A DNA stretch of 64,000 nucleotides from Candidatus Kapaibacterium sp. (GCA_963664875.1 OY761611.1:2656001-2720000), one strand, 5' to 3'; positions 36,410 through 62,900 are shown, numbered from the stretch's first letter. The notes: a model not told the origin generated them from the sequence alone. Made by a program: numbers and translations.

Positions 36410-36437
36410 TGAAACATAATTCAATACTATGTGTTAT
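36410..36437 (+). promoter_or_regulatory. putative ECF sigma promoter TGAAAC-N16-TGTTAT
   Basis: Same boxes and spacing as 42530-42557 and 61092-61119. Confidence 0.6.
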
Positions 36438-36712
36438 TGTGTTATTGAATGTATAGTTCTGTATTGGCGTAAATATTATAAGTATTATATATAAAAGAAG
36501 ATATGTATTGCCAAATGGAAATATATTTACAATAAGTAGAATATATGCAAAGTATATTGTCAAAATAATACTTTAATGAAAAGCATTAAATATGACAAAT
36601 TTAATGCTATAAAAAATAGAATTTTACTATTTTGTATGTGATAAGTTGCGATTTGATACAGATAAAGAGATTGTAATATATATAGTTGTTTAATATTATT
36701 AAATGAGGTTAC

Positions 36713-39700
36713 ATGAAAAAGATCAATGTGTTTAGTGCATTGTTTGTGCTACTCGTTGTACTTTTGAGTTCACCAAAAGCAATGGCGGTGGATTTGAATG
36801 ATTTGCAGCTATCTGACTATCAAGGAGAATATACTCCTATTGCAGGTACAATTCTTGGTGACGGTGATGATTCAGAATTTGATTTTGATTTGCCATTCAC
36901 TGTGTCTCACGACGGTCAAGAATTTACCAAAGCAAGAGTTTCTACAAACGGTTGGATGGTTCTCGGTGTTTCTACATACACAGGTATTACTGCAACTCCC
37001 GGTGGGACAAATGCAAACTTTTTAGTGCCTTGTAATGAAGATTTAAGAGCCGATGCAGGTATTGGAGACATTAGATGGAACGTTGTTGGGACTGCTCCAA
37101 GCAGAACTTTAATAGTTGAGTGGAAAGACCATAAATACTATGGAAAAGATCTTTCTACACTTAATTATCAATGCCAAATTTCCGAAGGTTCTAATATCAT
37201 TAGGTTTGTTTACGGAAATATGACAGCTCTCGATGATGGCGGAACTAATCAATCTTTCAGCTATATTTCTGGTTCTGTAGGAACAAAATATATCAATATT
37301 GAACCACTTGCCACAGGATTTGTTGGACACTATGGCAATTCCACTGAAAAATATCTTACGGAAGATGACAGACCTCTTTTCCCTGCAGGCAAAACTGTTG
37401 AGTTCTCTCTAGTGAACCCTGTGCTTATATCCGAATCAACAGAAAACGATGTGCTTTGGAAAATAGGCGAAACTTATCCTGCTCCTTCAATAGAAGTTCT
37501 GCGTTTAGCAGATATGCCAAGCTTTGTAATCGAATACACTTTGAAAAATACTAAAACTGGCGAAGTGATCTATAAAGCTACTAACGAAGGTGATGCTTCT
37601 ACAAACACTTTCACTCCAAATCCACAACCGGTAGGAATGAAAGAAACTCTTACTATAACTCATGCCATTGGTAAAGCTGCTGCCTACGATAGAGAAAATC
37701 CTAACTCTGACTTAAATGACGGTAGTTTCGATTTGATTACAGATGCAGCTTCAATCGAACCGGGTAGATATGAATTAGTATGTAAATTGATAATTCCTAA
37801 TAGCGAGGTAGCTGTTCAGTCTATTACTAAAAATGTTCAAATCGCTTTGGAAAACGATCTTGCAGTTAGTGATGTAAAATATCCTAAGAAAAACGGAAGA
37901 TACCTTATCAATAATTTTGTTCCTCTTCAAGTTAGAATGAGAAACTTTGGTACTGCTCAGATTTCTAACTTCAGAGTAACTGCTAAAATATATGATGCTG
38001 ATAACAATCAGTTAGTTTACGGTCCTGAGTATTTTAACTGGCAAAACACTGCAAGACCACTAAATACAGGTGATTTTGTATCTGTAGATTTCCCTAACTT
38101 TAGAACCCAAAAACCTTTGGTTCACGTTGGTAGATATTTTGTAGAATATACTTCAGAACTTTTAAGCTCTGATGATGATATGCCTACTAACAATACTGTT
38201 GGCACATCTTCAACTAACAGACATTACTTTGATGTTGTTTATGATGTAGAACCGGGTGCAGTTTCAGTTCAGGCTCCTGCAGCAGATGTTTTTGTTGGCA
38301 GACCGCTTTTCCCAAGAGCGAAATTTATCAACAACGGTATTGTAGATTTGTCAAACGTTCCTGCAATATTTACAATTGTTGGTCCGCTTCCTTCGACAAA
38401 CGTAGTTTATCAAAACGAAATGAATGTTCAGGATTTGCAGGCTGGTAATTACAATGTTACTTCTGTTCCTTTCAATACAGAATTTATTCCTGAATTGCCA
38501 GGTACTTACAAATGTGTTGTGAGCATCAACGATCCTAACGATAAAGATAATACAAATAATACTATCGAATCTACTTTCAATGTAGTATCATTGATGTCCG
38601 GTAATTATACTATCGGCAAAACTGCTACAGGTACAAGAAACTTTACTTCTATTGAAGAAGCTTTAAATATGCTTTATCTTAAAGGTGTAGATGGTCCTGT
38701 AACATTCGAATTATTAGATCCTGAATATACAATTGGTAATGTTAATTCAGATGCTCCGGCATTGGACATGTCTTCTAAAATCATTGGTGTAAGTGAAACA
38801 AATACTATTACTTTCAAACCATCAGATGCATTGGCTACTACAAAAGCAAGTATCCAATTTAATTTAAAATCAGGTAATGGTATTGGTATTTATATCGCAC
38901 AGAACTACACTCCTGCTAATGGCAATGCTGCCGTGCATGTAGTTACAGAAAAAAATAAATACAGATTTGCAAATACAGAAGGTAACTTCATCTTTGATGG
39001 TGGTGCTCAAAAATCTTTCAAATTTAACTTAGAAACGAAAGATAATAGATTTGCAGCAGTATTTTATCTTGGTGCAGGTGCTTCTAATTGCCAAATTAAA
39101 AACTGTATAATCGAAGATGAAACTCCAAACTTCAAATCTTCTCTTCCTTTGACAGTTTATAATGCAGGTGCAGGTGCTTTCACTCAGGAAGCAGATCAAA
39201 GAAGTAATACTGCTTATTACACAGCTGGTGTCGTGCTTAGATCTGTAGCTCCACGTTATGATAAAACAAACTCTAACTACTTCAATCTTGATACGCTTAC
39301 TGCAGACAATAACGTAATTGCTAATAATGAAATCAGCGGTTATGGCTATGGTATAGCTTCTATGGGTACAGGTTTGTTATTCCAAGCAGGTGGTAGCAAC
39401 AAATTTACAAAATACTATAACTCGAATAATATTTTCGAATCTAACAAAATCCATAACGTTGGTCACGCAGGTATTTTTGTTGGTTTCGAAAATGCATCTG
39501 AAATCAGATACAACAGAATTTACGATGTAAAAGGAACTGAAGTTTTTGCTGCTTGCGGTATTGTTGCCGGTGGTGAAGCTGATAGAGATATGTTTGGTTA
39601 CAACACAGTTGATATCAAAATCCTTGGTAATGAAATTAGCCACTTGACTAATGCTAATGAAATCTATGGTATCAAAGTAGATCAGTCACCTTCTATCGTA

Positions 39701-42322
39701 ATCGAAAACAGTAAATATTCTTTATATCCTAAAGCTGATGATAACGTCTTAGTTGCTAATAACATTATCTGGCAATTAGAACCGCAACAGTCTTACACAA
39801 CTCGCGTTGGTGTTGCTGTATTTTCTCAGAGAGCTACAAAAGGTAACTTCCAAACTGCTTCTATCTTACCTTTCCAAAAAGATTATGTGGTAAGAAATAC
39901 TAAAGTAGTAAACAATACTATCTTAGTGAACGGTGACGATGGTGTTGTTAATACTGGTAGTGTTATCGGTTTGGCTTTGCAGGATAACAGAAATGCAGAA
40001 ATCAAAAACAACGCTATTGCAGCTATGGATAACGAATTTGCAGAAACTTGCTTAGCATCTACTGCAATGTTCTTACAAAATGGCGATGTTAAAAATCAGA
40101 ATATAGTTTCTGACAGAAACGTTTTCTGGACAAACAACTCTGCTTCTACTATCGCTAGAATGATCGAAACTAACGACAAAAACGAAGTAATCGAAATGGG
40201 TTACACTACTGAATATAACACTTTGAGCAACTGGATTGTTTGGTCTGCTCAGGATATGAACTCAGTAGAATCTAACTTCATGACTGATTATGAATTTACA
40301 GGAGCTGCTCCTCAGACATTAAGAGTGAAATCTAATCCGCTTCCTCTTAATTCAGTATTGAATAACAGAGGTGACAGAATTGAAAGTAACACTACTGACT
40401 TACTTGGCTACACTCGTGGTGAAGCAGGTCAGAGATACGATATCGGTGCTTTGGAATTTAACGGCAGAACTTATGTGAGCGATGTTGAAAGCACTATAAT
40501 TTTAGAACCGGCTGCTTTCAAAGCTAACGACGGTACAGAATTTGGTGATGCAGAATATATCATGACTTCTTTACCTCTTTCAGTAAAAGTTAGAGTAAGA
40601 AATAATGGTTCTTTGATGCAACAAAATACTAATGCAAAACTTTCAATCTACCGCGAATTGCCTACAGGCGAATTTGCTGCAACTCCTGAGTATATCGAAA
40701 CTGTGAAATTTGACGCAGTTGCTAATGAAAGCTCAGACGTAGTATTTGACTTGGCAGGTAAATTCGAACCAAAAACTTACAGCGATTTGAGACTTAATGC
40801 TGCATACGCTGCTTCAGTTCCGGCAAAATTTGCTCAAATGACAGCTAACGTTACTCCTCGATACAAAATTGAAATTGCAGTTGAAAATGACGAAGATAAC
40901 TACAACAACGTAATTACTAAAAATGTACGTTACTTCATCCGCAAATCTTGGTTGAGATTGCTTGTTACTTCTGAAAATGTAAATGCTGATTTGACTAACA
41001 GCCCATCTCAGGAAGTAATTGCTTCTACATTGAACCACAACAAACTTATTGATGGTCTTAGCCATGTAGGTTGGGTAGTAGAAATGGATCAAAACGCAAC
41101 TTCAATCGAAAACGATAAATTCGACTACGATGTACTTGACAGAAATTGTTGGGAACCAAGAGCAATTGACTATACAAACTACAATACTGTTATCTGGTCA
41201 GATGCTCACGATACTAAAACTGTAGCTGGCGAAGAAGTTGCTAATGCTCTTACAAGATTCCAAGAAATGGACTTGTCTGATTACACTGCTGCCGGTACTA
41301 TTAGCGTTAAGAAAAATCTTATCTTCGCTTCTCAGGAATTATTGAGAAATCAGACAACTGATTTTGCAGCTAAAGTATTTGGTGCATTCAACAGACCTGT
41401 TGCAACTCCTGACGTAATTGATTATACTAACGTAACAGGCATGAATATCGGTCGTAACTTAGTTCACTTTATTAGTGCTACTAATTTCAACGGCGATGCT
41501 GATCCTCAACCTGCGTTGATGAATATGAATCAAAACATCGATGGTATTGCAAAACTTGGATTCTACTATACAAATGTACTTGCAGGAAACCCTGCTGTTA
41601 CTGAAACAGAAAAAATCCATACAATCGGAACAGTTTCTCCGACTGCAAACAGAATACTTTTGGGTAGCGACTGGAGACATTTTGTAGATATCGAAAAAGT
41701 ACTTCGTTCATTGTTCGATTTCGCAGAAGCTAATGGTGGTACAATCATCCCTGTAGAATTGGTTAACTTTGATGCAAAAGTTGTAAATGACAGAGTTGTA
41801 TTGAACTGGGCTACTGCAAGCGAATTGAACAGCGATAGATTTGAAATCGAAAGAACAACTGCTAATAATGGCTTTGATGGCTTGTTCGAAAGAATTGAAT
41901 CAGTTGAAGCTGCAGGCAAATCAGGTAATGTTATCGACTATAATGCAATTGACGAAAATGTAACATTCGGTAATACATACGCATACAGATTGAAAATGGT
42001 TGACCGCGATGGCAAATTTGAATACAGCCAAACAGAATATGTAACTTTGGAAGGTGCAAACTCTCTTGCTATCAAAGAAGTTACTCCAAATCCTGTTGCA
42101 GTTGATGCAAACGTGGAAATCTCATTGTTCGAATCCGCAAATGTAGAAATGTATTTAGTTGATATGAGCGGAAAAGTAGTTACTAATGTATATTCAGGCA
42201 ATTTGAGTGCGGGCACTCACAGCATCAAACTTGATGTAGCAAATATTGCTTCAGGTAACTACACATTAGTGCTAAATTCTAATAGTATTGTCAGAACTAC
42301 AGTAGTAAAAGTAGTAAAATAA
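36713..42322 (+). CDS. giant secreted multidomain protein (Ig/CARDB-like repeats, parallel beta-helix) with T9SS sorting domain; paralogue 1
   Basis: Signal peptide; NNVIANNEISG/NKIHNVG/NRIYD beta-helix repeats; IPVELVNFDAK..LNWATASE domain; TPNP...GNYTLVL...KVVK CTD. Confidence 0.85.
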   Translation: MKKINVFSALFVLLVVLLSSPKAMAVDLNDLQLSDYQGEYTPIAGTILGDGDDSEFDFDLPFTVSHDGQEFTKARVSTNGWMVLGVSTYTGITATPGGTNANFLVPCNEDLRADAGIGDIRWNVVGTAPSRTLIVEWKDHKYYGKDLSTLNYQCQISEGSNIIRFVYGNMTALDDGGTNQSFSYISGSVGTKYINIEPLATGFVGHYGNSTEKYLTEDDRPLFPAGKTVEFSLVNPVLISESTENDVLWKIGETYPAPSIEVLRLADMPSFVIEYTLKNTKTGEVIYKATNEGDASTNTFTPNPQPVGMKETLTITHAIGKAAAYDRENPNSDLNDGSFDLITDAASIEPGRYELVCKLIIPNSEVAVQSITKNVQIALENDLAVSDVKYPKKNGRYLINNFVPLQVRMRNFGTAQISNFRVTAKIYDADNNQLVYGPEYFNWQNTARPLNTGDFVSVDFPNFRTQKPLVHVGRYFVEYTSELLSSDDDMPTNNTVGTSSTNRHYFDVVYDVEPGAVSVQAPAADVFVGRPLFPRAKFINNGIVDLSNVPAIFTIVGPLPSTNVVYQNEMNVQDLQAGNYNVTSVPFNTEFIPELPGTYKCVVSINDPNDKDNTNNTIESTFNVVSLMSGNYTIGKTATGTRNFTSIEEALNMLYLKGVDGPVTFELLDPEYTIGNVNSDAPALDMSSKIIGVSETNTITFKPSDALATTKASIQFNLKSGNGIGIYIAQNYTPANGNAAVHVVTEKNKYRFANTEGNFIFDGGAQKSFKFNLETKDNRFAAVFYLGAGASNCQIKNCIIEDETPNFKSSLPLTVYNAGAGAFTQEADQRSNTAYYTAGVVLRSVAPRYDKTNSNYFNLDTLTADNNVIANNEISGYGYGIASMGTGLLFQAGGSNKFTKYYNSNNIFESNKIHNVGHAGIFVGFENASEIRYNRIYDVKGTEVFAACGIVAGGEADRDMFGYNTVDIKILGNEISHLTNANEIYGIKVDQSPSIVIENSKYSLYPKADDNVLVANNIIWQLEPQQSYTTRVGVAVFSQRATKGNFQTASILPFQKDYVVRNTKVVNNTILVNGDDGVVNTGSVIGLALQDNRNAEIKNNAIAAMDNEFAETCLASTAMFLQNGDVKNQNIVSDRNVFWTNNSASTIARMIETNDKNEVIEMGYTTEYNTLSNWIVWSAQDMNSVESNFMTDYEFTGAAPQTLRVKSNPLPLNSVLNNRGDRIESNTTDLLGYTRGEAGQRYDIGALEFNGRTYVSDVESTIILEPAAFKANDGTEFGDAEYIMTSLPLSVKVRVRNNGSLMQQNTNAKLSIYRELPTGEFAATPEYIETVKFDAVANESSDVVFDLAGKFEPKTYSDLRLNAAYAASVPAKFAQMTANVTPRYKIEIAVENDEDNYNNVITKNVRYFIRKSWLRLLVTSENVNADLTNSPSQEVIASTLNHNKLIDGLSHVGWVVEMDQNATSIENDKFDYDVLDRNCWEPRAIDYTNYNTVIWSDAHDTKTVAGEEVANALTRFQEMDLSDYTAAGTISVKKNLIFASQELLRNQTTDFAAKVFGAFNRPVATPDVIDYTNVTGMNIGRNLVHFISATNFNGDADPQPALMNMNQNIDGIAKLGFYYTNVLAGNPAVTETEKIHTIGTVSPTANRILLGSDWRHFVDIEKVLRSLFDFAEANGGTIIPVELVNFDAKVVNDRVVLNWATASELNSDRFEIERTTANNGFDGLFERIESVEAAGKSGNVIDYNAIDENVTFGNTYAYRLKMVDRDGKFEYSQTEYVTLEGANSLAIKEVTPNPVAVDANVEISLFESANVEMYLVDMSGKVVTNVYSGNLSAGTHSIKLDVANIASGNYTLVLNSNSIVRTTVVKVVK

Positions 42323-42341
42323 TATTACTCCATAGCAACAT

Positions 42342-42385
42342 TAAGCCCTTTTGCTTATTCATAAAGCAAAAGGGCTTATTTTTTT
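42342..42385 (+). terminator. intrinsic terminator after paralogue 1
   Basis: taagcccttttgctt / aagcaaaagggctta followed by T7. Confidence 0.85.
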
Positions 42386-42529
42386 CATCGAATTCATTCG
42401 ATATAATTCTTGCCTACCTTGCATTCGGAAAGAAAAAAAATAAAGTTTTCTGCATTTCTCTAAACTACTGTTAATACAGGAAGATAACAATATTATCTCG
42501 AAACATTAATAAAATATTTTATCATTAGC

Positions 42530-42557
42530 TGTAACATTGATAGAAAACATTTGTTAT
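42530..42557 (+). promoter_or_regulatory. putative ECF sigma promoter TGTAAC-N16-TGTTAT
   Basis: tgtaacattgatagaaaacatttgttat; both boxes identical to those upstream of the ECF sigma gene. Confidence 0.65.
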
Positions 42558-42732
42558 CATTTTAGTAGATTGTATGAAGTAAATTATACTCCTTTTATAG
42601 TCATCAAAAACGCAACAAACTATCCCAGATAAAAGGAATATAATTATACGTATTAAAACAAATAAAATACTTCAATAAATAACATAGAATTTCAGATAAA
42701 ATACAATTTGTTTTACTAAATAAGGTGATACA

Positions 42733-45700
42733 GTGAAAAAACGTTTAATGCAGTTTTTCGCTCTCGCAACGTTACTAATAGTTGCGTCCATACAAGCATG
42801 GGCTGCTCCAGTGGCCAGAACTTGTACTGCAAGTTCAAGCTCTGGTCCGGATTCCTTCCATGAGTTAACAATTAATGGATTAGAGTTGATCACTAATCAT
42901 TTTGCAGCACCTGGTGGTTATGTAGATTATACAAATCAAGCAATAACAGTTAGTGCTGGCGATGTTATGGATTTTTATGCGTACGGTCTTGAGTGGTACA
43001 GTGCAGGAAGTCCTTTGGGGCTATATTCTTGCCGTGTGTCAGTACTTGTAGATTTCAATTCAGATGGAGACTTCGAAGATGAAGGAGAACTTATTTGGAT
43101 TTCTACAGTAGGTGCTAACGAACATGAAGCACAAATTACTATTCCTGAAGAAGTAGATGGTGGCGAATATAGAATGTGTATTGTTGGAACAGAATCAACT
43201 TGGGGCGATCCAACTGTTCTTTCAAGTACAGGTTGTGGTAGTGATGCTTATGCAATGATTGTTGATGTTACCCTTATCGTTAAGCCTAAGACACCTACAC
43301 TTGTTGACATTTTCCCAACAACACCCGAAGATGGCGTAGCCGTATTTTCACGTGGCTACAAAATGGGACAACCATGGGTTGACGTAAAACGCGTAGATGG
43401 CATGCCAAACATATCTTATAAATACAAAGTAATTGGTCCTTTGCCATTAGAAACAGTAGTTTATGAAGCAAAAGTAGAAGGCAATGTAGCATCTAACTTA
43501 ATCACACCAAACCCACAGCCATTAGGCGAAGTTGCAAGAATGACAGTAACTCATGCAACAGGTTTGGCAGCAGAATATGATGCAAACAACCCTGACAACG
43601 TAGGTGGCACAGCAAATCCTGACAACACAGGTGTGTTTGATTTACAGACAAATCAGTTGCAAATCGAAGGCGGTTCATACCGTGCAATAGCTGAGCTAAG
43701 CTTCACCTTTGAAGGTCAGCCTATGACACTTACAAAATATAAAGATTTTGTAATCGCAATCGACAATGATATTGCAATTACATCAGTAAGAAAACCAATC
43801 AAAATGCCAAAAATGAAATATGGCAAAAACGTTCCTGTTCCAATCACAGCAACAGTAACAAACGTAGGTCTTTATGATGTAAGTGAATTTGAAATCACAG
43901 CAAAAGTATATCCTGAAAACGGAACAAATCCTGTATTCGAAACATCAGAACGCTGGAAAAATACATCAGCACCACTATCAACAGGCGATTTGACAGTAAT
44001 GGAATTAGATCCATACAGAGCCAAAGACGGTGTTGGTAATTTCCGCATCGAATTTGAAGTGGAATTGATAAGTGCATTTGACGAAGCACCTGCAAACAAC
44101 GTATATCCAAAAGTTGGCCAGGCTGCACACGTATTTGAAGTAGCATACCAACGCGATGCACAGCCAATAGCAGTAATCGCACCTGTAGGCTCAAATAACT
44201 ATGTAGGTCGTCCGATAATCCCAAGAATCGAATTAAAAAACAACGGTATTCTTGACTTATCTAACGTACCGACAAAATTGCAAATCAAAGCACCAAACGG
44301 CGCAGTAGTTTATGATGAAGACTTCGAAGTAGAAGTAGTACCATCAGGCTTATACAACACAATGAAAGAATACTTGCCTGTAGAATTTATCCCTGCAATG
44401 GCAGGCACATATACAGCCAAAGTATATACATCACTAACAACAGATGACAATAAAGCTAATGACATGTATGAAACAACATTCACAGTTATTAACTCCTTGT
44501 CAGGTACATACACAATCGGTACAACAAACTCATCAAGCACACGTAACTTTGCTACAATCCAAGATGCATTGGATATGATATATGAATCAGGTGTTTACGG
44601 TCCTGTAACATTTGAATTGACAGATGCATCATACACAGTAGGTAGCAAAATTGGCCAAAATCCTGCAATGGACTTGTCATCACACATCATCGGCGGCGGC
44701 GAAGATCACCCAATCGTGTTCAAACCATCACAAAGCCGTGCAGTGAGCAAAGGCTCAATTACAATTAACATGAAAAGCGGTAACGGTATTGGTGTGTTCA
44801 TTGCCCAGGCAGCAGAGCACAGCAATGCAGCAGCAGCAATTAATGTAGTAAGAGCAACATTGAAACGTGACTATGCAAATTCACCGGGTTACATCACATT
44901 TGATGGTGGCAGCCAGAAATCAATCAAATTCACGTTAGACACAGACGAACCATTCAAAGCAGTGTTCTATTTGGGTAACGGTGCATCAAACAATACAATC
45001 AAAAATTGTATAATCGAAGGTACAGATGCAGGCAGCTTTAAATGCTCATTGCCATTGACAGTATATTCAGCAGCACAGGGCGGCTTCAAATACGAAGCAG
45101 ACAAACGCTCAAATACATTGGCTTACACAGCCGGTATCGTGATGCGCAGTAAAGCACCGATTAACGAAAAATTCAATGCAAACACAGACGGTCTTGATAC
45201 CCTTGTAAATGCAAACAACGTAATCATGAACAACGAAATCAGCGGATTCGCTTATGGTGTTGCTTCTATGGGTATCGGTCAGTTGCTCGTACAAGGTTTA
45301 GGCCATAACGTAGAGCATTTCAACGAAAACAACGTAATCAGCAACAACGTAATTCATAATGTAGGCCGCGCAGGCGTTTTTGTAGGTCATGAAAAACACA
45401 CAGAAATCAGCGGTAACAGAATATATGACATCGAAGGCGGTTGCACAGGTCTTGACGCAGCAGGTATCATGGCAGGCGGTCAGTCAGCACGTGGCTATTT
45501 CGGCTACAACAACCGTATGGTAAACATATTGAACAACGAAATCAGCAGCATCAGCGGTACAGGCATGGTAAGTGGTATTCGCGTAGAGCAATCACCACAA
45601 CAGCTAATCGAAGGTAGCTTGCTTACAACATTCCCGGTAAATCCTGAATCAATGGTAATCGCAGGTAACATCGTATGGGAATTGTTGCCAAACGACGCAA

Positions 45701-48189
45701 ATACAGCAAGAGCAGGTATTTACGTATTCACACAACGCAACAGTTTTGACTCACCATTGCAGTCAGATTACTTCTCAAGAAATGACGCAATCGTAAATAA
45801 TACAATCATAGTAAACGGCGATGACGGCGTAATGAACACACGTGCAGTAATGGGCGTAGGTCTTCAAAACGTAATGGGTACAGTACTCAAAAACAACGCA
45901 ATCGCAACAATGGATAACGACTATGCAGCAACTTGCCCTGTATCAGCATGCGTGTTCTACCAAGGACCTTCAATGGAAGAGGCAGGCGTAATTTCTGACC
46001 GCAACGTATATTGGACAGAAAACTCAGCATCATCAGTTTACCGTTGGATCGAAACAGATGCAGCCGGCAACAAATTGTCAGATGCAGCAATCAATGAATA
46101 CAAAACATTGGCACAATGGCAAGCATGGGCAGGAGCAGACAAATACTCAGTATATTCAAAATTCATGACAGATTACGCATTTGTAGGAACAAATCCACAG
46201 AACTTACGCGTTAAATCAAACCCAATGCCATTGAACTCAGTACTAAATAACCGTGGCGATATCCTAGATGTAACAACAAGCGACATCACAGGCAAAGTAC
46301 GCGGCGAAGCAGGTCAGAGATACGACATCGGTGCGTTAGAATTTAACGGACGCGTATATGTAAGCGATATGGAATCAACTACAATCACAGCACCTGCATC
46401 ATACCGTGCAACAGAAGGTATCTTTGCAGATGCAGAACACATCATGACAGAAGCCCCTGTAGAAGTAAGTGCACGTTTGAGAAACAACGGTAGCTTATTC
46501 CAAACAGGCGCAGAAGTAACAGTAAAAATCTATCGTGAATTGCCAAACGGTACATTCGGTGCAGCACCTGACTACGAACAAACAGTAAAAGTAGATGCAA
46601 CAACCTACGAATACGTTGATGTAAACTTCAACCTTGCCGATGGCAAAGGCTTAGAATTTGTACCAGAAACGTATGCAGACTTGCGTTTGAACCCAAGCTA
46701 TGCAGCATCAGTACCTGAAGTATATTCAGAAATGACAGCAAACGTAACACCACGCTACAAAATAATGATAGTAACAGAAAGCGATGAAGACAACACAAAC
46801 AACGAAGCATCAAAAATCGTAAGATTCTTCATTCGCCGCTCATGGATGAACATGTTGGTAAGCAGCCAGTATGTAAATGCAGACTTGAGCAACACACCAA
46901 GCCTAACAGAAATCGCAGGTAAATTGAACCACGACCGCGTAGTAAACGGTTTGAGCTTTGTAGGCTGGAAAGTAGCAATCAATCCGACAGCAACAACAAT
47001 CGCCAACGACACAATCGACTATGACGTATTAGACAGAAACAACTGGGAAGCAAGAGCCATAGATTATGGTCACTACCGCACAGTAGTATGGTCAGACGCA
47101 CACGATGTGATGGGCGATGCAGATGTAAAATTATCACGTTACGAACAATTAGACATAGAAAACTACTTTGCAAACGGAACTTCAATCGATAAGAAAAACT
47201 TGATTTTAGCATCACAGGAAATGATCAGAAACAACGGCGTAGTAGCACGCGATTTATTCAGAGCTACAGACCGCGTAAAAGCAAATCCTGAAGTAATCGA
47301 CTACACAGAAGTAACCGGCAGCAGCGTAGGCAGAAACCTAACAAACATAATAGCACCAACAAACTTCGTAGGCGACGCAGCACCAAACCCAGCATTAGTT
47401 GACATGTGGGACGGCGGCGAAGGTAGAGTTAAGTTGGCATACTACTACACAAATGAACTAAACGGCACAAGCACATTGTTACCGGAAGAAAAAATCATGG
47501 GTGTAGCCACAACAACAATCGGAACAAATATATGCTACTTAGGAGCAGACTGGCGCCACATAGCAGACATCGAAAAAATGCTAAGAAGCGTATTTGACTT
47601 CGCAGAAGCAAACGGCGGCATCATAATTCCAATCGAATTGGCAACATTTGATGCAAAAGCAGTAGGCAACCGAGTAGATTTGAACTGGTCAACTTTATCA
47701 GAAATCGAAAGTGACCGCTTCGAAGTAGAAAGAACAGAAATTACAGACGGCTATGCAGACCTATTCAGCAAAGTATCAGAAGTAAGCGCAAGCGGCACAA
47801 GCCACTCAGTACGCAACTACAACACAGCAGATTACGGCGTAGAATTAGGCAAAAAATATGCATACAGACTAAAAATGATAGAACGCAGCGGAAAATTCGA
47901 ATACAGCGAAATCGAAGAAGTGGAACTAAGCGCACCAAACAACTTGATGGTAGGCGAAGTAACACCAAATCCTGTAAGTGCACAGTCTAAAGTAAAAGTA
48001 AGCGGCGCAAGCACAGCAAACATTTACTTAAGCGACATGAGCGGACGCAAAGTAGTAGAATACGCAAAGGGCAACTTTGACGGCAGCGAAGTAACAATCG
48101 ACGCATCAAACTTGACAAGCGGCAGCTACACATTAGTAATCGAATTAGACGGCTACGTAATCACACGTAAAGTAAATGTAGTGAAATAA
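42733..48189 (+). CDS. giant secreted multidomain T9SS protein with N-terminal GEVED-like domain; paralogue 2
   Basis: GYVDYT...VDFNSDGDFEDEGE...ITIP...YRM GEVED-like segment; body collinear with 36713..42322 (e.g. RGEAGQRYDIGALEFNGR identical); T9SS CTD; GTG start. Confidence 0.85.
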   Translation: MKKRLMQFFALATLLIVASIQAWAAPVARTCTASSSSGPDSFHELTINGLELITNHFAAPGGYVDYTNQAITVSAGDVMDFYAYGLEWYSAGSPLGLYSCRVSVLVDFNSDGDFEDEGELIWISTVGANEHEAQITIPEEVDGGEYRMCIVGTESTWGDPTVLSSTGCGSDAYAMIVDVTLIVKPKTPTLVDIFPTTPEDGVAVFSRGYKMGQPWVDVKRVDGMPNISYKYKVIGPLPLETVVYEAKVEGNVASNLITPNPQPLGEVARMTVTHATGLAAEYDANNPDNVGGTANPDNTGVFDLQTNQLQIEGGSYRAIAELSFTFEGQPMTLTKYKDFVIAIDNDIAITSVRKPIKMPKMKYGKNVPVPITATVTNVGLYDVSEFEITAKVYPENGTNPVFETSERWKNTSAPLSTGDLTVMELDPYRAKDGVGNFRIEFEVELISAFDEAPANNVYPKVGQAAHVFEVAYQRDAQPIAVIAPVGSNNYVGRPIIPRIELKNNGILDLSNVPTKLQIKAPNGAVVYDEDFEVEVVPSGLYNTMKEYLPVEFIPAMAGTYTAKVYTSLTTDDNKANDMYETTFTVINSLSGTYTIGTTNSSSTRNFATIQDALDMIYESGVYGPVTFELTDASYTVGSKIGQNPAMDLSSHIIGGGEDHPIVFKPSQSRAVSKGSITINMKSGNGIGVFIAQAAEHSNAAAAINVVRATLKRDYANSPGYITFDGGSQKSIKFTLDTDEPFKAVFYLGNGASNNTIKNCIIEGTDAGSFKCSLPLTVYSAAQGGFKYEADKRSNTLAYTAGIVMRSKAPINEKFNANTDGLDTLVNANNVIMNNEISGFAYGVASMGIGQLLVQGLGHNVEHFNENNVISNNVIHNVGRAGVFVGHEKHTEISGNRIYDIEGGCTGLDAAGIMAGGQSARGYFGYNNRMVNILNNEISSISGTGMVSGIRVEQSPQQLIEGSLLTTFPVNPESMVIAGNIVWELLPNDANTARAGIYVFTQRNSFDSPLQSDYFSRNDAIVNNTIIVNGDDGVMNTRAVMGVGLQNVMGTVLKNNAIATMDNDYAATCPVSACVFYQGPSMEEAGVISDRNVYWTENSASSVYRWIETDAAGNKLSDAAINEYKTLAQWQAWAGADKYSVYSKFMTDYAFVGTNPQNLRVKSNPMPLNSVLNNRGDILDVTTSDITGKVRGEAGQRYDIGALEFNGRVYVSDMESTTITAPASYRATEGIFADAEHIMTEAPVEVSARLRNNGSLFQTGAEVTVKIYRELPNGTFGAAPDYEQTVKVDATTYEYVDVNFNLADGKGLEFVPETYADLRLNPSYAASVPEVYSEMTANVTPRYKIMIVTESDEDNTNNEASKIVRFFIRRSWMNMLVSSQYVNADLSNTPSLTEIAGKLNHDRVVNGLSFVGWKVAINPTATTIANDTIDYDVLDRNNWEARAIDYGHYRTVVWSDAHDVMGDADVKLSRYEQLDIENYFANGTSIDKKNLILASQEMIRNNGVVARDLFRATDRVKANPEVIDYTEVTGSSVGRNLTNIIAPTNFVGDAAPNPALVDMWDGGEGRVKLAYYYTNELNGTSTLLPEEKIMGVATTTIGTNICYLGADWRHIADIEKMLRSVFDFAEANGGIIIPIELATFDAKAVGNRVDLNWSTLSEIESDRFEVERTEITDGYADLFSKVSEVSASGTSHSVRNYNTADYGVELGKKYAYRLKMIERSGKFEYSEIEEVELSAPNNLMVGEVTPNPVSAQSKVKVSGASTANIYLSDMSGRKVVEYAKGNFDGSEVTIDASNLTSGSYTLVIELDGYVITRKVNVVK

Positions 48190-48456: not shown

Positions 48457-48530
48457 TGATCCCGGCAGGATTCGAACCTGCGGCACCAAGTTTAGGAAAC
48501 TTGTGCTCTATCCTACTGAGCTACGGGACC
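48457..48530 (-). tRNA. tRNA-Arg(CCT)
   Basis: GGTCCCGTAGCTCAGTAGGATAGAGCACAAGTTTCCTAAACTTGGTGCCGCAGGTTCGAATCCTGCCGGGATCA; anticodon loop TTCCTAA; CCA not encoded. Confidence 0.96.
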
Positions 48531-56036: not shown

Positions 56037-56079
56037 ACTTTATTATGCTCAGTGATTAGAAACACTCTCTCAAAGATTC

Positions 56080-57185: not shown

Positions 57186-57381
57186 GTAACAGGTGTCTTG
57201 TTTAAATGAAAAATAAAAATGATTTGTAAAACTGCAAATCGGATAAATGCAAATATAAGAAATATCGGACTTTCTATATAGTTCGTCCAGCATTAGTCCC
57301 AAGCTATCTGAATAGCTCAACTCAAATTAGTATGATGAGGAATAATTTTATATATTGTAGTGAAAATATGGGAGAACATAG

Positions 57382-57669
57382 ATGAAGAAAATACTTTTTG
57401 CCTTAGTGCTTTGTTTGACTTTGTATTCATGCGACGAAACACCGGATATAGATAAAGAGCATTTTATTAACGCTTACCGTGAAATATTGCTTGCTCGCGA
57501 ATCAATTGCTGATTCTGTAGCTGCCAATAAAGAAGTGCAAATGATCCTTACCAAATATGATTATACTATGGAGACATTTGCTAAAGAGTATCAGGATTTA
57601 ATGTCAGGAGATAGCCAGATTTATGGGATTATTGATTCTTTAAGAAAAGAATTTAGAGCAAAATATTGA
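57382..57669 (+). CDS. small lipoprotein (DUF4296-like)
   Basis: Lipobox LYSC; helical, ILTKYDYTMETF. Confidence 0.6.
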   Translation: MKKILFALVLCLTLYSCDETPDIDKEHFINAYREILLARESIADSVAANKEVQMILTKYDYTMETFAKEYQDLMSGDSQIYGIIDSLRKEFRAKY

Positions 57670-57834
57670 TGGTTTCTGCTGCTCAATGAATGAGATATAA
57701 AAATCAGATAAAACAATGAAAGTCTATGTTTTTTAAATCTTAGATTTTAACATAAAATATATCTCTTACTATCGAGTTATATATTAGATATAATCAATTC
57801 TTTTTTTTAGCTTGTAAAGCATTGAGCATCTTTT

Positions 57835-58998
57835 ATGACTAACCTGATATGGAGGGCTTCGCAAATGGATAAGTCAAACTTTTCAGCGCTTGTAGGAAGG
57901 TCTGCACCTGAGGAACTTCAAAAACACATAGGATATTTTAACTCCGGCTCAGTTTATCAAGAGCTTTTTGACAGGATTCCCGAACTGATTCTGATATTAA
58001 ATAAATACAGAGAATCAGTATTTATAAATAAAAAAACAAAAGAGCTACTTCAGGTAGATAATCCTCTTGATATTTATGGTAAGAGGCCCGGAGAGATATT
58101 CGGATGCTTGCATGCAGAGGATGTTGACAGTGGTTGCGGAGATGCACTTGCCTGCAAATACTGCGGAGCAGTAATCTCAATAAAAGCTGCACAGGGTGGA
58201 GATAATAATGAAAACGAATGCCTGATACTTACAAAAAATAATCTGGATGCTTATGAGATGCGAGTGTCTTCTTCTGCTTTAGAGCTAAATGATGAATCAT
58301 TTGTGGTATTTACACTTGCTGATATAAGTGATACAAAAAGAAAACAGCTACTTGAAAGAATATTTTTCCACGATTTGATGAATACAGCCACCGGAATCTC
58401 TACACTTTCTCATCTGCTTAATATAAAGTTGCCTGATGAATACTCCAAATATAAACAGCTCGCAGGCGATTACTCTAATAAACTGATAGATGAAATCAAA
58501 TCACAAAGACAGATAATCGCTGCAGAAAACGGGAATTTGTCTCTAGAAATTGGCGATACCGTGTCTTGTGAAATAATCAGCAATACTGCAAATATGGCTA
58601 TGTTATATAATTTGCAGGACGAACAATTGGAAATTGACAGGGAAATGGAGAAGATTAGCTTCAAAACAGATAGGGCAATACTTGCAAGGGTTCTTACTAA
58701 TCTGATAAAAAATGCATACGAAGCTGAGTACAAAGGTGGCAAAATTACTGTTTCATGTTCCAAAAAAGATGAGAATACAATTTGTTTTAGTGTAAACAAC
58801 CCAAGTGTAATGCCGGAAAGTATTCGTGAGCAAGTCTTCAAACGTTCTTTTTCAACAAAAGGAGCAGGACGAGGACTCGGCACTTACAGCATAAAGCTAC
58901 TTACTGAGAAATATCTAAAAGGCAAAGTCTATTTTGAGAGCAAAGAACCAATAGGAACAACCTTTTATGTCGAATTGCCGGTTGATTTAGGTAGTTGA
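57835..58998 (+). CDS. cytoplasmic PAS-like sensor histidine kinase with Cys cluster
   Basis: RPGEIFGCLHA...GCGDALACKYCG; FFHDLMN, NLIKNAYEA, FSTKGAGRGLGTY. Confidence 0.88.
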   Translation: MTNLIWRASQMDKSNFSALVGRSAPEELQKHIGYFNSGSVYQELFDRIPELILILNKYRESVFINKKTKELLQVDNPLDIYGKRPGEIFGCLHAEDVDSGCGDALACKYCGAVISIKAAQGGDNNENECLILTKNNLDAYEMRVSSSALELNDESFVVFTLADISDTKRKQLLERIFFHDLMNTATGISTLSHLLNIKLPDEYSKYKQLAGDYSNKLIDEIKSQRQIIAAENGNLSLEIGDTVSCEIISNTANMAMLYNLQDEQLEIDREMEKISFKTDRAILARVLTNLIKNAYEAEYKGGKITVSCSKKDENTICFSVNNPSVMPESIREQVFKRSFSTKGAGRGLGTYSIKLLTEKYLKGKVYFESKEPIGTTFYVELPVDLGS

Positions 58999-59222
58999 GT
59001 AGGAAGGAATTATTCCTAGGCTAAATTTGCTCTATATTAGAGCGGATATATAAAAGAAGGATTTCTTGGGAGCAAGTATTTTGGATTGTTCGATAAAATG
59101 TGTGAATAATATTTTTAGAAATAAATATATTTGTTGATAACTAAATTGGGTGTTTCAATTCAAAGAAAAAATACCCAATCATTTTGAAGCAGAAGATTTA
59201 TTTATATTCGATCTTAAATACA

Positions 59223-59903
59223 ATGATTATACAGGCTACTGACTTAAAAAAATCTTACTACAACGGCAAAAATGCTACTGAAGTGATCAAGGGAATAAAC
59301 CTTAATGTGCATCATGGAGAATATCTTGCTTTAGTTGGTCCATCCGGTGCCGGGAAAAGCACTTTGCTTTATTTGATAAGCTCACTCGAAAAAACTGATT
59401 CAGGTAAAATTCTTTTTAATCTTGACTCGTCTTCATTTAATATTATTGATTTGAACAAAGAAAAGATAGCTGAGATTAGAAACAAGTACATCGGGTTTAT
59501 TTTTCAGTTCCATCATCTTATGCCGGAATTTAATGCACTTGAAAATGTTATGATTCCAGGAATGATTGCCGGCACAGCTAAAGCTAAACTTAAAGAAAAA
59601 GCCCTTTATCTGCTGGATAAAGTCGGAGTATCACATAGGCTCGACCATAAGCCCAGCGAGCTTTCGGGAGGCGAACAGCAGCGTGTAGCTATTGCACGCT
59701 CTCTGATTAACAATCCCAAAATCCTATTTGCGGACGAACCGACGGGCAATCTTGATACAAAAAATTCTGAATCTTTTCTCGAACTAATCAGTACTATTAA
59801 AAAAGAATATAATCTGACTGTTGTTACAGCTACTCACTCAAAAGAAATAGCTGCAGCTGCAGACAGAATTGTTACAATTGAAGATGGATACATTAAGGAA
59901 TAA
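59223..59903 (+). CDS. lolD: LolD-like ABC transporter ATP-binding protein
   Basis: [51 protein letters not shown]. Confidence 0.75.
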
Positions 59904-59909
59904 AAAATT

Positions 59910-60641
59910 ATGACAAAAGTAGTTTTACTCGGTTATGGTCAAATGGGTAGAGAAATAGATTCTATTGCCAAAGAATTTGACGTAGAGATAGTTGCTAAAC
60001 TTGATTTAGCAGATGATATAAATGATTTGGATAAAATAGATTTTGATGTAGCTATTGATTTTACTATACCTATGGCGGTAGAAGATAACTTTCGAAAAGT
60101 AATTAGTCTTGGTAAAAGCATAGTAATTGGTACTACCGGGTGGTATGATAAATTGGACAGATTTAGAGAACTTGCAGAAAATTCTAACGGATCTTGCCTG
60201 TGGGGCTCAAATTTCTCTATAGGTATGCAGACATTCTACAGACTTATAGCAAACGCAGGCAGTCTGATAGACAAATTAGACGAATACGATGTTTCTGTGC
60301 ATGAAATACATCACAGACGTAAAAAAGACAGTCCAAGTGGCTCAGCTTTGGCTATTGCAAATATACTGCTTGAAAATGTAGATAGAAAAACAAGAATAAA
60401 AGAAGAAACATGCCACGAAGAAATAGATAAAAATTCAATCCATGTCAGCTCTTCAAGGATAGGAGCGATTACAGGCACTCATACTGTCTATATGGATTCG
60501 AAATCTGACACAATAGAGCTGACACACAGAGCTAAAAACAGACGTGGATTAGCTAAAGGAGCACTTGTGGCAGCAAAATGGCTTGCAGGCAAAAAAGGCT
60601 TTTACACTTTTAGTGACGTTTTAGATGAAATAATGGACTAA
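59910..60641 (+). CDS. dapB: 4-hydroxy-tetrahydrodipicolinate reductase
   Basis: GYGQMG, IDFT, IGTTG, SNFSIG, EIHHRRKKDSPSGSA. Confidence 0.95.
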   Translation: MTKVVLLGYGQMGREIDSIAKEFDVEIVAKLDLADDINDLDKIDFDVAIDFTIPMAVEDNFRKVISLGKSIVIGTTGWYDKLDRFRELAENSNGSCLWGSNFSIGMQTFYRLIANAGSLIDKLDEYDVSVHEIHHRRKKDSPSGSALAIANILLENVDRKTRIKEETCHEEIDKNSIHVSSSRIGAITGTHTVYMDSKSDTIELTHRAKNRRGLAKGALVAAKWLAGKKGFYTFSDVLDEIMD

Positions 60642-60646
60642 TCACC

Positions 60647-61069
60647 ATGAAGTTGCTTGGTATATTATTACTTGCTCTTTTTGCTGTTTCAATATTTGCA
60701 GAAGAAACCCAAGACTCTAACAATGGGCAAATGAGTAAAAAAGACAGTGTAGCAATAATAGATTTTTCTCCCCAAAAGTTAGAGCTTTTTGGGCATGAAG
60801 GACAGTTTTTTGATACAATGATTGTTGTGCATAACTACGGCAACATACCTTTGAAATTGAAAAAAGTGCAGGCGAGTTGCTCATGCTCCTCCGGTACTTT
60901 ACAGCAAGGAACGGTGATGCCCGATAAAACTGGAAAAATATATATATCTATCAACAAACATGGCTTGCACGGTGATGCTCGGCGAGTGGAGTTTGATGTT
61001 TATTCTAATGCGGAAGATCCTATCAGCAGTTTTGAAATAATCTTTTACGATAAAAAAAGCGGCGAATAA
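60647..61069 (+). CDS. DUF1573 domain secreted protein
   Basis: Signal peptide, N.GNIPLKL..VQASCSC, VYSNA. Confidence 0.82.
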   Translation: MKLLGILLLALFAVSIFAEETQDSNNGQMSKKDSVAIIDFSPQKLELFGHEGQFFDTMIVVHNYGNIPLKLKKVQASCSCSSGTLQQGTVMPDKTGKIYISINKHGLHGDARRVEFDVYSNAEDPISSFEIIFYDKKSGE

Positions 61070-61082
61070 GTCGCTTTTTTTT
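61052..61082 (+). terminator. intrinsic terminator overlapping the DUF1573 stop
   Basis: aaaaaaagcggc / gtcgctttttttt; separates the ECF operon from upstream transcription. Confidence 0.72.
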
Positions 61083-61091
61083 ATACACTTG

Positions 61092-61119
61092 TGTAACATT
61101 TATCTCCAATTATTGTTAT
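61092..61119 (+). promoter_or_regulatory. putative autoregulatory ECF promoter TGTAAC-N16-TGTTAT
   Basis: Lies in the 46-nt gap between the terminator and the sigma ATG; AAC -35 and GTT -10 cores are typical of ECF promoters. Confidence 0.72.
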
Positions 61120-61128
61120 ATATACAAG

Positions 61129-61698
61129 ATGCAAAAAAAAATAGAAGAATATAGTGATACCGAATTATACTATATGCTATGCGATGACAAAAGAACAGCA
61201 GAATTGGCTTTTGCTGAGTTATACGCAAGGCTTTCCGGTAAAGTATATGCCTATTGCTTAAGGTTTTTAGGCGATAAGGAAGAGGCTCGCGATATTTTTC
61301 AGGAAACTTTTGTAAAATTCCATCAAAGTGCCGATAAAGAAAGAGAAATGACTAATGTCCCCGGCTTTTTGATGAGAATTGCGAGAAATTTGTGTATCAA
61401 CGCAATCAGAAAAGACAACCCTGATGTCCCTTATGAGGATTATATGGGAGTTTACGACGAAGAAATTTCGAGAGATAAAAAAGAGTTGCTCGGTCTAATA
61501 AAAAAAGGTCTGCAATTAATGCCCGAAGAGTACCGTGAATATTTTGTGTTAAGGGAATACGACGGCTTTACTTACAACGAAATTGCTGAAATCATGAACA
61601 CTAATGTCGATACTGTAAAAGTAAAGATATTTAGAGCTAAAAAGAAAATGCGTGAGATACTTGCACCCTATTTGAAAGAATTGACAAACTATAGATAA
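61129..61698 (+). CDS. ECF (sigma-70 group 4) RNA polymerase sigma factor
   Basis: AFAELY, EARDIFQETF, RIARNLCIN region 2; YNEIAEIM..TVKVKIFRAK region 4. Confidence 0.95.
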   Translation: MQKKIEEYSDTELYYMLCDDKRTAELAFAELYARLSGKVYAYCLRFLGDKEEARDIFQETFVKFHQSADKEREMTNVPGFLMRIARNLCINAIRKDNPDVPYEDYMGVYDEEISRDKKELLGLIKKGLQLMPEEYREYFVLREYDGFTYNEIAEIMNTNVDTVKVKIFRAKKKMREILAPYLKELTNYR

Positions 61699-61703
61699 CG
61701 ATT

Positions 61704-62900
61704 ATGGACAATTTTAATCATAATGAGCTAAGCAGAGAGGAAATCCTGTCGCTTCTTATGGATGGTGAGCTACAAGATGCAAACGAGCAGTCCCTTTTTG
61801 CCGAATTGGCAAAAGAAACTGATTTGCAGGCTCAGCTAAAGGATACTTTAGCCATCAGAGAAGCTATCAAATCCGACAGCGAAGCCTTTGCTCCTCCGCC
61901 TGATCTTACAGCAGAGCTTTTTGATAAGCTCGGTTATGCTCAGCGACCTAAGATAGCTCCTTTGGGCTTCGATTGGTCAAGATTCATGAGACGTGTTGCC
62001 GCACCACTCATGTTGATGATGCTGGCAATAACCTTGCCATTGATATATAATGCAACTACTGATACTAACACTATAGACGCTTCTGTTCCGGTTATTTCTT
62101 CGGAAAGTATCGAGCAAGAGCACACAAATGTAGTCGAAGCAAATTCTGTTTCTACTACGGAGAATCTACAATCTCGCTCTGCAAATGCAGCTTTGGCAAC
62201 ATCTTCTAATCAAAGAATATTAACGGGCAATCAAGATGCAGATGAGTTCGCAGATAATGATGTATATGATGTAGTTTCAACTGAATCTGAGCCGGAAGAC
62301 TTTGCACAAAGCAATTTCTTAGACTCTAAAATCATTACTAACAGCAATATGTATTCAGATGTGATTTTAGTTGCAGACAACTCCGAAATGCAAAATTTTG
62401 CAATTTCTGACATTAAAGCAATAAGGCACACGAGACAAGATAGAGAGTGGACTCTCCACCTGCGAGGAATTTATAATCTTAATGCTGATAATGAAGCTAT
62501 GCAGGAATTTAATCCTACAAAAAGCTTTGCAGCCGGCATTATGATGAAACTTTCAGAAGATGTTTCATTCGGTCTCGAAGGTGGAAGAGAAGTTTATAGC
62601 TTTTCGAACACAATCGAGGGCTTGCAGGATGACCCTTATGTGTTTTGGTATGCTTTAAGTTTCCGTTATTTAGTCAACGAGCTTAACTTTTCAGGGATAA
62701 CACCTTATGTAAGAGTTAACGGTGGTGGCTCGTCACGAGGTCCTGTGTTTGCAGCATTTATTGGAGGCGAATACAGACTTTCTGATACTTATGCACTTAC
62801 TTTGGGCTATGGTGCAAATTTACTGACTTACAAATCAAATAATTTGCAGTATGCCACAAGCAAAACAGGGTTGAATTTCGGAATTAACTTTAGATTTTAA
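61704..62900 (+). CDS. anti-sigma factor with TM helix, low-complexity linker and C-terminal outer-membrane beta-barrel
   Basis: LSLLMDGEL anti-sigma-like N-terminus, TM AAPLMLMMLAITLPLIY, S/T/E/N/D-rich linker, amphipathic strands ending GLNFGINFRF. Confidence 0.75.
   Translation: MDNFNHNELSREEILSLLMDGELQDANEQSLFAELAKETDLQAQLKDTLAIREAIKSDSEAFAPPPDLTAELFDKLGYAQRPKIAPLGFDWSRFMRRVAAPLMLMMLAITLPLIYNATTDTNTIDASVPVISSESIEQEHTNVVEANSVSTTENLQSRSANAALATSSNQRILTGNQDADEFADNDVYDVVSTESEPEDFAQSNFLDSKIITNSNMYSDVILVADNSEMQNFAISDIKAIRHTRQDREWTLHLRGIYNLNADNEAMQEFNPTKSFAAGIMMKLSEDVSFGLEGGREVYSFSNTIEGLQDDPYVFWYALSFRYLVNELNFSGITPYVRVNGGGSSRGPVFAAFIGGEYRLSDTYALTLGYGANLLTYKSNNLQYATSKTGLNFGINFRF

Follow-up and report, generated by a model that had tools for sequence, protein, structure and literature searches.

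The 64,000-nucleotide stretch of the Candidatus Kapaibacterium sp. genome analysed here (GCA_963664875.1 OY761611.1:2656001-2720000; the window) raises the question of whether a small sigma factor operon commands two genes for giant proteins encoded elsewhere in the same stretch. The operon encodes an extracytoplasmic function (ECF) sigma factor, here called sigma i, and its anti-sigma; the giants, P1 and P2, are type IX secretion system (T9SS) cargo. An earlier note on this DNA had proposed that a single motif, TGWAACAT-N14-TGTTAT, precedes the sigma gene and both giant genes with identical spacing and in the correct orientation, and that the sigma factor controls the two giants. Our answer is that the bipartite element TGTAAC-N16-TGTTAT is, at a probability that we put at about 0.8, a promoter recognised by the ECF sigma encoded at 61129-61698, and that sigma i very probably switches on part of the T9SS cargo, as judged from sequence comparison. 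The motif, its conservation, its specificity across the genome and the protein architectures come directly from the computations described below.

An exact pattern search places TGWAACAT-N14-TGTTAT at three sites (Table 1), all on the plus strand and matching the earlier note in coordinates, spacing and orientation; no further copy occurs in the 64-kb window, and none of 100 dinucleotide-preserving shuffles of the window contained a match. The whole genome (3,827,814 bp, a single contig) holds four copies, the three in the window and one elsewhere, and the number expected by chance, estimated from base composition, is about 0.3 per genome. The fourth copy (genome 3050419-3050446, plus strand) lies within a coding frame (...TGETFKIDICYLND...) and is probably a chance match, an internal promoter being conceivable. 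When the core is relaxed to TGWAAC-Nx-TGTTAT, a spacer of 16 gives ten genome matches and every other spacer from 12 to 21 gives zero to five; strict matches on the minus strand lie at genome 2017006 and 3322429. Since the motif had been derived from the sites under test, the matrix used below was built from promoters of other genera only, and the link between the sites holds with these independent data, the foreign-promoter matrix and the orthologous loci.

The sigma operon itself offers the clearest view of the element. The site in front of sigma i begins just past a terminator-like hairpin, as the earlier note had it; this hairpin is also present in four loci of the same genus and is predicted to insulate the operon from upstream transcription, and together with a second hairpin behind the anti-sigma gene it delimits a two-gene sigma/anti-sigma unit (Table 1). 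Relatives of sigma i (E<=1e-20) occur in 40 of 41 related genomes, and the region directly 5' of the best match was inspected in 30 fetched loci, which represent many genera with protein identities of 45–60%. At 20 of these 30 loci the core TGTAAC-N16-TGTTAT, with at most one mismatch in its 12 bases, ends 8–13 nucleotides (nt) before the ATG; at 24 of them it is present when two core mismatches and an element end within 16 nt of the ATG are allowed. The spacer sequence is not conserved. The autoregulation generally expected of ECF sigma factors, with an AAC core at the -35 position, a spacer of 16–17 nt and a short G/T-rich -10, has its counterpart in the same bipartite element at the same place before orthologues in other genera, and on this comparison the element at 61092-61119 has the footprint that an autoregulated promoter of the ECF type should leave. 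Because it lies at a short and fixed distance from the ATG, the mRNA is probably leaderless or nearly so. The protein behind the promoter contains the sigma2 and sigma4 regions only, in about 190 amino acids (aa), which places it among the ECF (group IV) factors; it scores 87.7 bits against TIGR02937 (cut-off 42.9, NCBIfam), and stays below the cut-offs of the best specific NCBIfam model, sigma_PG0214 (108 bits, cut-off 130), and of TIGR02985 (106.8 bits, cut-off 126.4). The labels given earlier to the ECF sigma, the barrel-containing anti-sigma and the sorting domains of both giants agree with Pfam, NCBIfam and AlphaFold2.

The foreign-promoter matrix (38 columns, 25.5 bits) was made from 19 sigma promoters of other genera, none of them from this genus, and gave 44 matches above 12 bits in a scan of both strands (7.6 million positions). 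The P1 site ranked first in the genome (27.3 bits), the P2 site seventh (17.8 bits) and the site of sigma i ninth (17.1 bits), with no other match in the window. Genes were called crudely as longest open reading frames (ORFs; 2941 genes), and the downstream proteins were run against Pfam and NCBIfam. Twelve matches of at least 12 bits stand 5' of cargo genes: those of P1, P2 and their paralogue P3, those of FTP, VWA, Omp28, DUF3160, IgGFc-binding (two), Ig and SBBP proteins, and that of the sortase PorU, which was identified by NF033707 (864 bits, cut-off 420). Matches also stand before genes outside the cargo set, namely those of sigma i itself, of another ECF-like sigma (the second sigma), of a TonB-dependent receptor, of a Cupin_5 protein and of two proteins whose function is not known.

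Cargo genes are numerous in this genome, with about 195 sorting-domain genes according to an iteratively built hidden Markov model (HMM) and at least 150 matches to the domain in a Pfam scan. Among the 2111 genes with a usable upstream region, sense matches of at least 12 bits lie in front of 9 of the 163 that encode cargo and 6 of the 1948 others (Fisher p = 2.6e-7), whereas the antisense control in the same regions gave 1 of 163 and 8 of 1948; the enrichment 5' of T9SS cargo that the earlier note had put forward as a check is there, and in the sense orientation only. Upstream regions with matches of at least 12, 14 and 16 bits number 15, 13 and 9; a first-order Markov simulation, run 30 times, gave means of 3.1, 1.3 and 0.5 and never more than 7, 4 and 2. 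This excess suggests a regulon of roughly 10–15 promoters that covers a small subset of the cargo genes. The proposal that sigma i controls two local giants stands in so far as the matrix links both of them to it, but it was drawn too narrowly: the predicted regulon spans the whole genome and takes in about a dozen of the roughly 195 cargo genes, porU and the second sigma.

The same data bear on what kind of element this is. At two of the three sites in the window, both strands fit TAACA-N15-TGTTA, and such an inverted repeat might be the site of a dimeric transcription factor and not a promoter. We consider this very improbable, as the 19 orthologue sites do not conserve an A after AAC and most often have T there, and as the top sites score 12–27 bits in the sense direction but mostly below 5 in antisense (for example, 27.3 against -5.0). 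The nine sense matches against one antisense match before cargo genes, the 8–13 nt to the sigma ATG, the preference for a 16-nt spacer and a T-rich tract after the -35 fit an ECF promoter instead.

The giant genes provide further evidence for the promoter. P1 and P2 are T9SS cargo of type A, with sorting domains above curated cut-offs in a genome that has PorU and a SprA homologue, the latter 61% identical to a TIGR04189-positive SprA. The nearest Atlas cluster of P1 consists of proteins of about 1900 aa with GEVED and Por_Secre_tail domains (score 0.91), and the paralogues of P1, namely P2 (48%), P3 and P4, lie at 48–49% identity. P2 and P4 share a stretch of 5282 nt at 97.6% identity, which begins about 312 nt into the coding sequence and runs on to about 127 nt beyond the stop codon. 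Their N-termini, upstream regions and promoters are unrelated, as if the gene body alone had recently been duplicated or had undergone gene conversion. TGWAAC-N16-TGTTAT stands upstream of all four giants, P1 to P4, in regions that cannot otherwise be aligned, so the shared element is not a by-product of promoter-region duplication. In four sister species, TG[TA][AT]AC-N16-[TG]GTT precedes 14 of 15 giant-gene homologues at a distance to the start codon that is fixed within each group (273–274 nt for P1-like, 169–171 nt for P2-like and 61–68 nt for P4-like genes). A variant of the P1 element is found in all four sister-species orthologues and the P2 element in three sister-species homologues, and in the alignments the -35 and -10 form conserved islands in otherwise diverged sequence. 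Conservation upstream of orthologues, which the earlier note had named as a further check, is therefore seen at the giant genes too.

Outside the genus, five genomes contain 30 strict matches, compared with 3 for a reversed-pattern control. The sigma's own promoters account for four of the 30; at 9 of the other 26, the first downstream ORF has a sorting domain by our own HMM, one of the nine being PorU and six of them also matching Pfam Por_Secre_tail at E<=1e-4. Other genes at these sites encode Sov/SprA (TIGR04189, 948 bits), an orthologue of the second sigma, Omp28 and GEVED proteins, and the remaining sites precede unrelated genes or lie far from any gene. The four sister species have 21 strict matches against 8 for the control, and 10 of the 17 non-sigma sites, including those of the P1 and P2 orthologues, precede sorting-domain genes. 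Measured against a base rate of about 6.5%, the binomial p is 2e-5 for the other genera and 2e-8 for the sister species; the base rate comes from this genome and has rough support elsewhere, where a first look gave 125–176 candidates per genome.

That all these matches are chance products of AT-rich spacers is a practically negligible explanation. The genome has 36% G+C, one strict copy does lie inside a gene and about three upstream regions reach 12 bits in the Markov simulation; against this stand the empty window shuffles, the surplus over simulation at all three thresholds, the fixed positions in orthologous regions and the control count of 3 against 30.

Table 1. Positions of the candidate promoters, genes, hairpins and anti-sigma domains, counted from the first letter of the window unless marked as genome or residue positions.
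Feature	Position	Strand	Remarks
Candidate ECF-type promoter of P1	36410..36437	+	TGAAAC-N16-TGTTAT, followed by T; ends 275 nt before the ATG at 36713
P1, giant T9SS cargo, 1869 aa, beta-helix-like	36713..42322	+	Por_Secre_tail (PF18962) 30.6 bits, cut-off 27; TIGR04183 27.6 bits, cut-off 23
Candidate ECF-type promoter of P2	42530..42557	+	TGTAAC-N16-TGTTAT; ends 175 nt before the GTG at 42733
P2, giant T9SS cargo, 1818 aa	42733..48189	+	Por_Secre_tail 31.9 bits, cut-off 27; GEVED 30.5 bits; TIGR04183 32.5 bits, cut-off 23
P3	genome 3275827-3281388	-	paralogue of P1
P4	genome 798028-803484	-	paralogue of P1
Terminator-like hairpin and T run	61061..61083	+	5-bp stem (61061-61075) with 3 GC pairs, T tail; ends the upstream dapB/DUF1573 unit
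Candidate ECF-type promoter of the sigma operon	61092..61119	+	-35 TGTAAC, 16-nt spacer, -10 TGTTAT; ends 9 nt before the ATG
Sigma i, ECF sigma, 189 aa	61129..61698	+	Sigma70_r2 55.5 bits, Sigma70_r4_2 58.1 bits (Pfam)
Anti-sigma, 398 aa	61704..62900	+	directly after the sigma gene; ends ...INFRF
Terminator-like hairpin and T run	62928..62959	+	13-bp stem, T tail; closes the two-gene operon
Three further sigma/barrel-anti-sigma pairs	genome 1756780/1757354, 807004/807566, 3139788/3138446		paralogous to the window pair
Anti-sigma, helical sigma-binding domain	residues 11-75		AlphaFold2
Anti-sigma, hydrophobic membrane helix	residues 91-115		AlphaFold2
Anti-sigma, disordered tether	residues 115-244		pLDDT <50, no secondary structure
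Anti-sigma, 8-stranded beta-barrel	residues 249-397		pLDDT mostly >90; chain ends in F

Which sigma factor reads the sites is a separate question, since this genome has 14 ECF-like sigmas, four of which, sigma i included, are followed by homologous barrel-type anti-sigmas. From orthologue comparison, sigma ii has a conserved promoter of its own, TGCAAC-N16-TGTAWC, and so does sigma iii, TGTGACAAA-N13-TGTTWW, while the gene of sigma iv lies within an operon. The matrices for sigma ii and sigma iii were built from only 5–6 sites each, so that their genome matches are leads only. Together with the sigma i matrix they tell the sigmas' own promoters cleanly apart, and 14 of 18 target promoters, including those of P1 to P4, score best with sigma i. 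The assignment of the targets to sigma i is the best reading of these sequences; its exclusivity we infer. Paralogous pairs with related promoters make cross-talk possible, and the earlier claim of control over the giants keeps its support from the 14 promoters that fit sigma i, though not in the form of sole control, given three related pairs.

It could then be that the ECF promoter is real while the cargo sites are read mainly by another sigma, one of the three paralogous pairs or the orphan second sigma, with sigma i controlling little beyond itself. This we hold to be quite unlikely. The paralogues' own promoters do share TGNNAC-N16-TGT, P4 lies 3.5 kb from sigma iii, four of the 18 targets do better with the ii or iii matrices, the -10 variants seen in sister species tend towards TGTTTA, and other cargo genes, too, are preceded by matches to the ii and iii matrices (genome 3299102/3300688, 2528153, 1724222 and 535025). 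However, the discriminating -35 sequences TGTAAC (i), TGCAAC (ii) and TGTGAC (iii) are conserved across genera in the sigmas' own promoters, the sigma i type is found at all four giants and at their sister-species homologues, the sigma i matrix alone ranks P1 first in the genome, and the rival matrices have the small site numbers given above.

Several further observations weigh against the main reading. The VWA and Omp28 cargo promoters score best with the sigma iii matrix, and those of the TonB receptor and this genome's porU marginally best with that of sigma ii, porU being about equal between i and ii. The element occurs at only about 12 of the roughly 195 cargo genes and thus does not define a general T9SS regulon. 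Three of these targets (VWA, the second IgGFc-binding protein and SBBP) were excluded from the Fisher count, their crude gene calls overlapping the upstream regions or misplacing the starts. Among the 15 giant homologues of the sister species, one (L180) has no site, and in these species the last two bases of the -10 vary (TGTTTC, TGTTTA, TGTTCT and TGTTAA) towards the sigma iii type. Leaders of 170–275 nt would be long for the giant genes; alignment of the sister species reveals other conserved blocks in the leader of P1, and a second, proximal promoter in a giant-gene leader is possible. Related genomes are not independent, and the cross-genome p-values therefore overstate the case. Sov/SprA, considered as a regulon member, was rejected for this genome, where the matrix gives -10.6, the element being found only in one genus (G008, 313 nt upstream). 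Contigs from the RNA libraries of three studies, mostly 95–99% identical to the window, cover parts of the P1 and P2 bodies, mostly P2 (97.6% identical to P4), and leave 36417-37250 and 42255-42671 uncovered, with the promoters and leaders falling outside; they are uninformative on 5' ends and may include DNA. Three metatranscriptome runs contain 7–17% of the sampled words.

The leaders and bodies of the giant genes have some features of their own. In the upstream region and leader of P1 (window 36330-36712), a ATGTAAAA box about 45 nt upstream of the -35 is conserved in the sister species, a further conserved block lies mid-leader (TTAAATAT..AAATTTAAT), and one of about 45 nt directly before the ATG (TAATATAT.TAGTTGTTTAATATT..GAGGTTAC) might act in translation or as a housekeeping promoter close to the gene. 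An Rfam scan of 35000-64000 found a tRNA at 48457-48530 only; it recognised no RNA in the long leaders. A strong A-over-T skew of 0.21–0.33, far above the rest of the window, runs through the C-terminal half of P2 (window 44001-48000).

Some of the predicted targets elsewhere in the genome can be described more closely. The gene for PorU (genome 3726656-3730645, minus strand) is preceded by TGTAACCTTTTA..TGTTTA at 28–30 nt in five of five genomes of the genus; a matrix match of at least 8 bits within 300 nt of porU occurs in five further genomes, and the match is absent from most other families of the order. The orphan ECF-like second sigma (genome 2550078-2550722, minus strand) has no adjacent anti-sigma and carries an upstream element of 19.9 bits. 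It is 84.6% identical between two genera (L058 in G007), compared with 57% for sigma i, and the element is upstream in both, an arrangement that suggests a sigma cascade. The second-best match in the genome (25.2 bits, genome 1724176-1724430) points at the gene of a 169-aa Cupin_5 (DUF985) protein, which is divergent from a 1515-aa cargo gene with a sigma iii-type match of its own. Many sorting-domain genes of about 440–510 aa stand in tandem arrays of near-identical copies among the matches listed, for example at genome 1823039-1827665 (four copies), 2200500-2206002, 925089-931146 (five copies) and 1109256-1116040.

As for the partner of sigma i, the anti-sigma gene follows the sigma gene in at least 18 orthologue loci, and an AlphaFold2 model built on 18 orthologues (mean predicted local distance difference test score, pLDDT, 63.9) divides the protein into the four segments of Table 1. 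The C-terminal part finds the OmpA-TM, NspA, OprF-N, Ail and OmpW barrels in Foldseek with a probability of 1.00 (E = 4e-6 to 1e-3). The RseA_N family matches the anti-sigma at 23.3 bits, just below its cut-off of 24, and matches 7 of the 18 orthologues. A complex model of sigma i with anti-sigma residues 1–90 scored 0.84, compared with 0.01 for the best of three controls; among solved complexes 116 of 157 come up to this mark, and among mismatched pairs 2 of 215. Since structures of sigma/anti-sigma complexes exist, the high score may come from resemblance to them. At least 93% of contacts are common to the runs, the partner pLDDT is at least 78, and the modelled N-terminal domain of the anti-sigma is clamped between sigma2 and sigma4, touching both. 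On these models, the anti-sigma is predicted to reach the outer membrane and to span both membranes.

A profile of the anti-sigma family was run against 121 genomes sampled from the phylum and matched in 10; full-length matches come from seven genomes including this one, all of its own class (its order and one other genome), and the three genomes of other classes have only N-terminal fragments. No anti-sigma of this type was found after the sigma relatives of about 30% identity in Bacteroidales, and of the 80 loci fetched, only 16 have such a gene behind the sigma. A word-indexed protein search with the anti-sigma alignment returned only nine close relatives, without a name or annotated as hypothetical.

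An anti-sigma that crosses the whole envelope has precedents in Bacteroides. Das1/Dma1 and Das2/Dma2 of B. thetaiotaomicron and EcfO/Reo of B. fragilis are pairs of an ECF21 sigma and a dual membrane-spanning anti-sigma (Pardue et al. 2024, PMC10927553; PMC13088901). The trans-envelope anti-sigma envisaged in the earlier note agrees with the modelled architecture but is not new, as the Dma class was published in 2024. According to the passages of those papers available to us, the pairs have in common with that of the window the ECF sigma gene directly followed by the anti-sigma gene; an anti-sigma that binds the sigma with its N-terminal domain, continues through a single membrane helix and a long disordered tether, and closes with an 8-stranded barrel; and a proposed logic in which the barrel senses the outer membrane or the exterior. 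Unlike this likeness in architecture, by which alone Dma1 and Reo were compared, a link in sequence was not found with the phylum profile (121 genomes) or at the Bacteroidales loci. The outputs differ too, since the same passages describe NigD-like proteins and vesicle production in B. thetaiotaomicron, in contrast to T9SS cargo and porU here; they contain no promoter motif, and signals, promoters and regulons beyond gut Bacteroides are not described in them.

ECF control of T9SS genes has likewise been reported. SigP of Porphyromonas gingivalis, together with PorX/PorY, controls T9SS-related genes (PMC4800418; PMC8265659; PMC7712824). In the parts of these papers that we drew on, SigP acts on machinery genes (porT, porV, the porP operon and sov) and is stabilised by a response regulator, whereas the predicted targets here are mainly cargo and porU; its proposed motif is a loose A-rich word, set apart by description from a bipartite -35/-10 element. 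The words "anti-sigma" and "CTD" are absent from PMC4800418. In Flavobacterium psychrophilum, where such control has been deduced, the ECF-type promoter SM6 was mapped at transcription starts before porU, gldN, the gene of a PorM/N-associated outer-membrane protein and an ECF/anti-sigma pair (PMC9723704). As that paper describes it in the sections consulted, SM6 has porU as a target in common with our element, but its -10 is a CGT box in place of TGTT, its targets are machinery genes and Band-7 proteins and not giant cargo, and its sigma is not assigned.

Classical autoregulated ECF pairs for comparison are SigW/RsiW of B. subtilis and sigmaE/RseA of E. coli, whose structures 5wuq and 1or7 came out among the top PDB matches. 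They have the same sigma2 and sigma4 layout, with the N-terminal domain of the anti-sigma clamped between the two as in the model here, and the same promoter plan of AAC at -35 and a spacer of 16 nt, the consensus for SigW being TGAAAC-N16-CGTA. Unlike these pairs, the window system has a -10 of TGTTAT in place of CGT, an anti-sigma with its own outer-membrane barrel and an mRNA that is probably leaderless. In the literature searched, TGTAAC-N16-TGTTAT, its Dma-like pair in this lineage and this target set were not found, the ECF-group promoter predictions of Staron et al. 2009 being outside the coverage.

Taken as the reader of the element, sigma i would transcribe its own two-gene operon from a promoter close to the ATG, which would give positive feedback. 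In the resting state, the co-transcribed anti-sigma would keep it at the inner membrane through its N-terminal domain, which the disordered tether would join to the anti-sigma's own outer-membrane barrel. A signal at the outer membrane or the surface would then inactivate the anti-sigma, free the sigma and turn on the regulon. The predicted members are the four giant (~200 kDa) GEVED/sorting-domain surface proteins, two of them in the window, about eight other T9SS cargo genes, porU, the conserved orphan second sigma and a few others such as Cupin_5. Transcription starts, the signal, the mode of release and reading by sigma i alone are those parts of the scheme that we infer.

A wider idea, which we think rather unlikely as it stands, is that four trans-envelope sigma/anti-sigma modules with promoter codes of their own (TGTAAC..TGTTAT, TGCAAC..TGTAWC and TGTGAC..TGTTWW) partition a T9SS secretome of about 200 members into separately inducible sets, the window module being a surface-to-gene feedback loop. 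In such a loop, the outer-membrane barrel would signal the condition of the cell surface or whether cargo is attached, and the sigma, itself made from a leaderless autoregulated mRNA, would answer with giant surface proteins, PorU and a sigma of a second tier. Outside its own class, only N-terminal fragments match the anti-sigma family among the sampled genomes, and its two-membrane architecture may therefore have arisen independently of Bacteroides Dma1.

Since ECF control of T9SS genes is known in principle from SigP and SM6, the result refines the picture and is no surprise. What this case yields is a sharply defined promoter, TGTAAC-N16-TGTTAT, and a conserved list of predicted targets in an uncultured Kapabacteria-like lineage. 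It would tie a sensor of the Dma-like type to T9SS cargo and a sortase gene and not to vesicle production, and offers a possible account of how subsets of the roughly 195 T9SS cargo genes may be expressed on demand.

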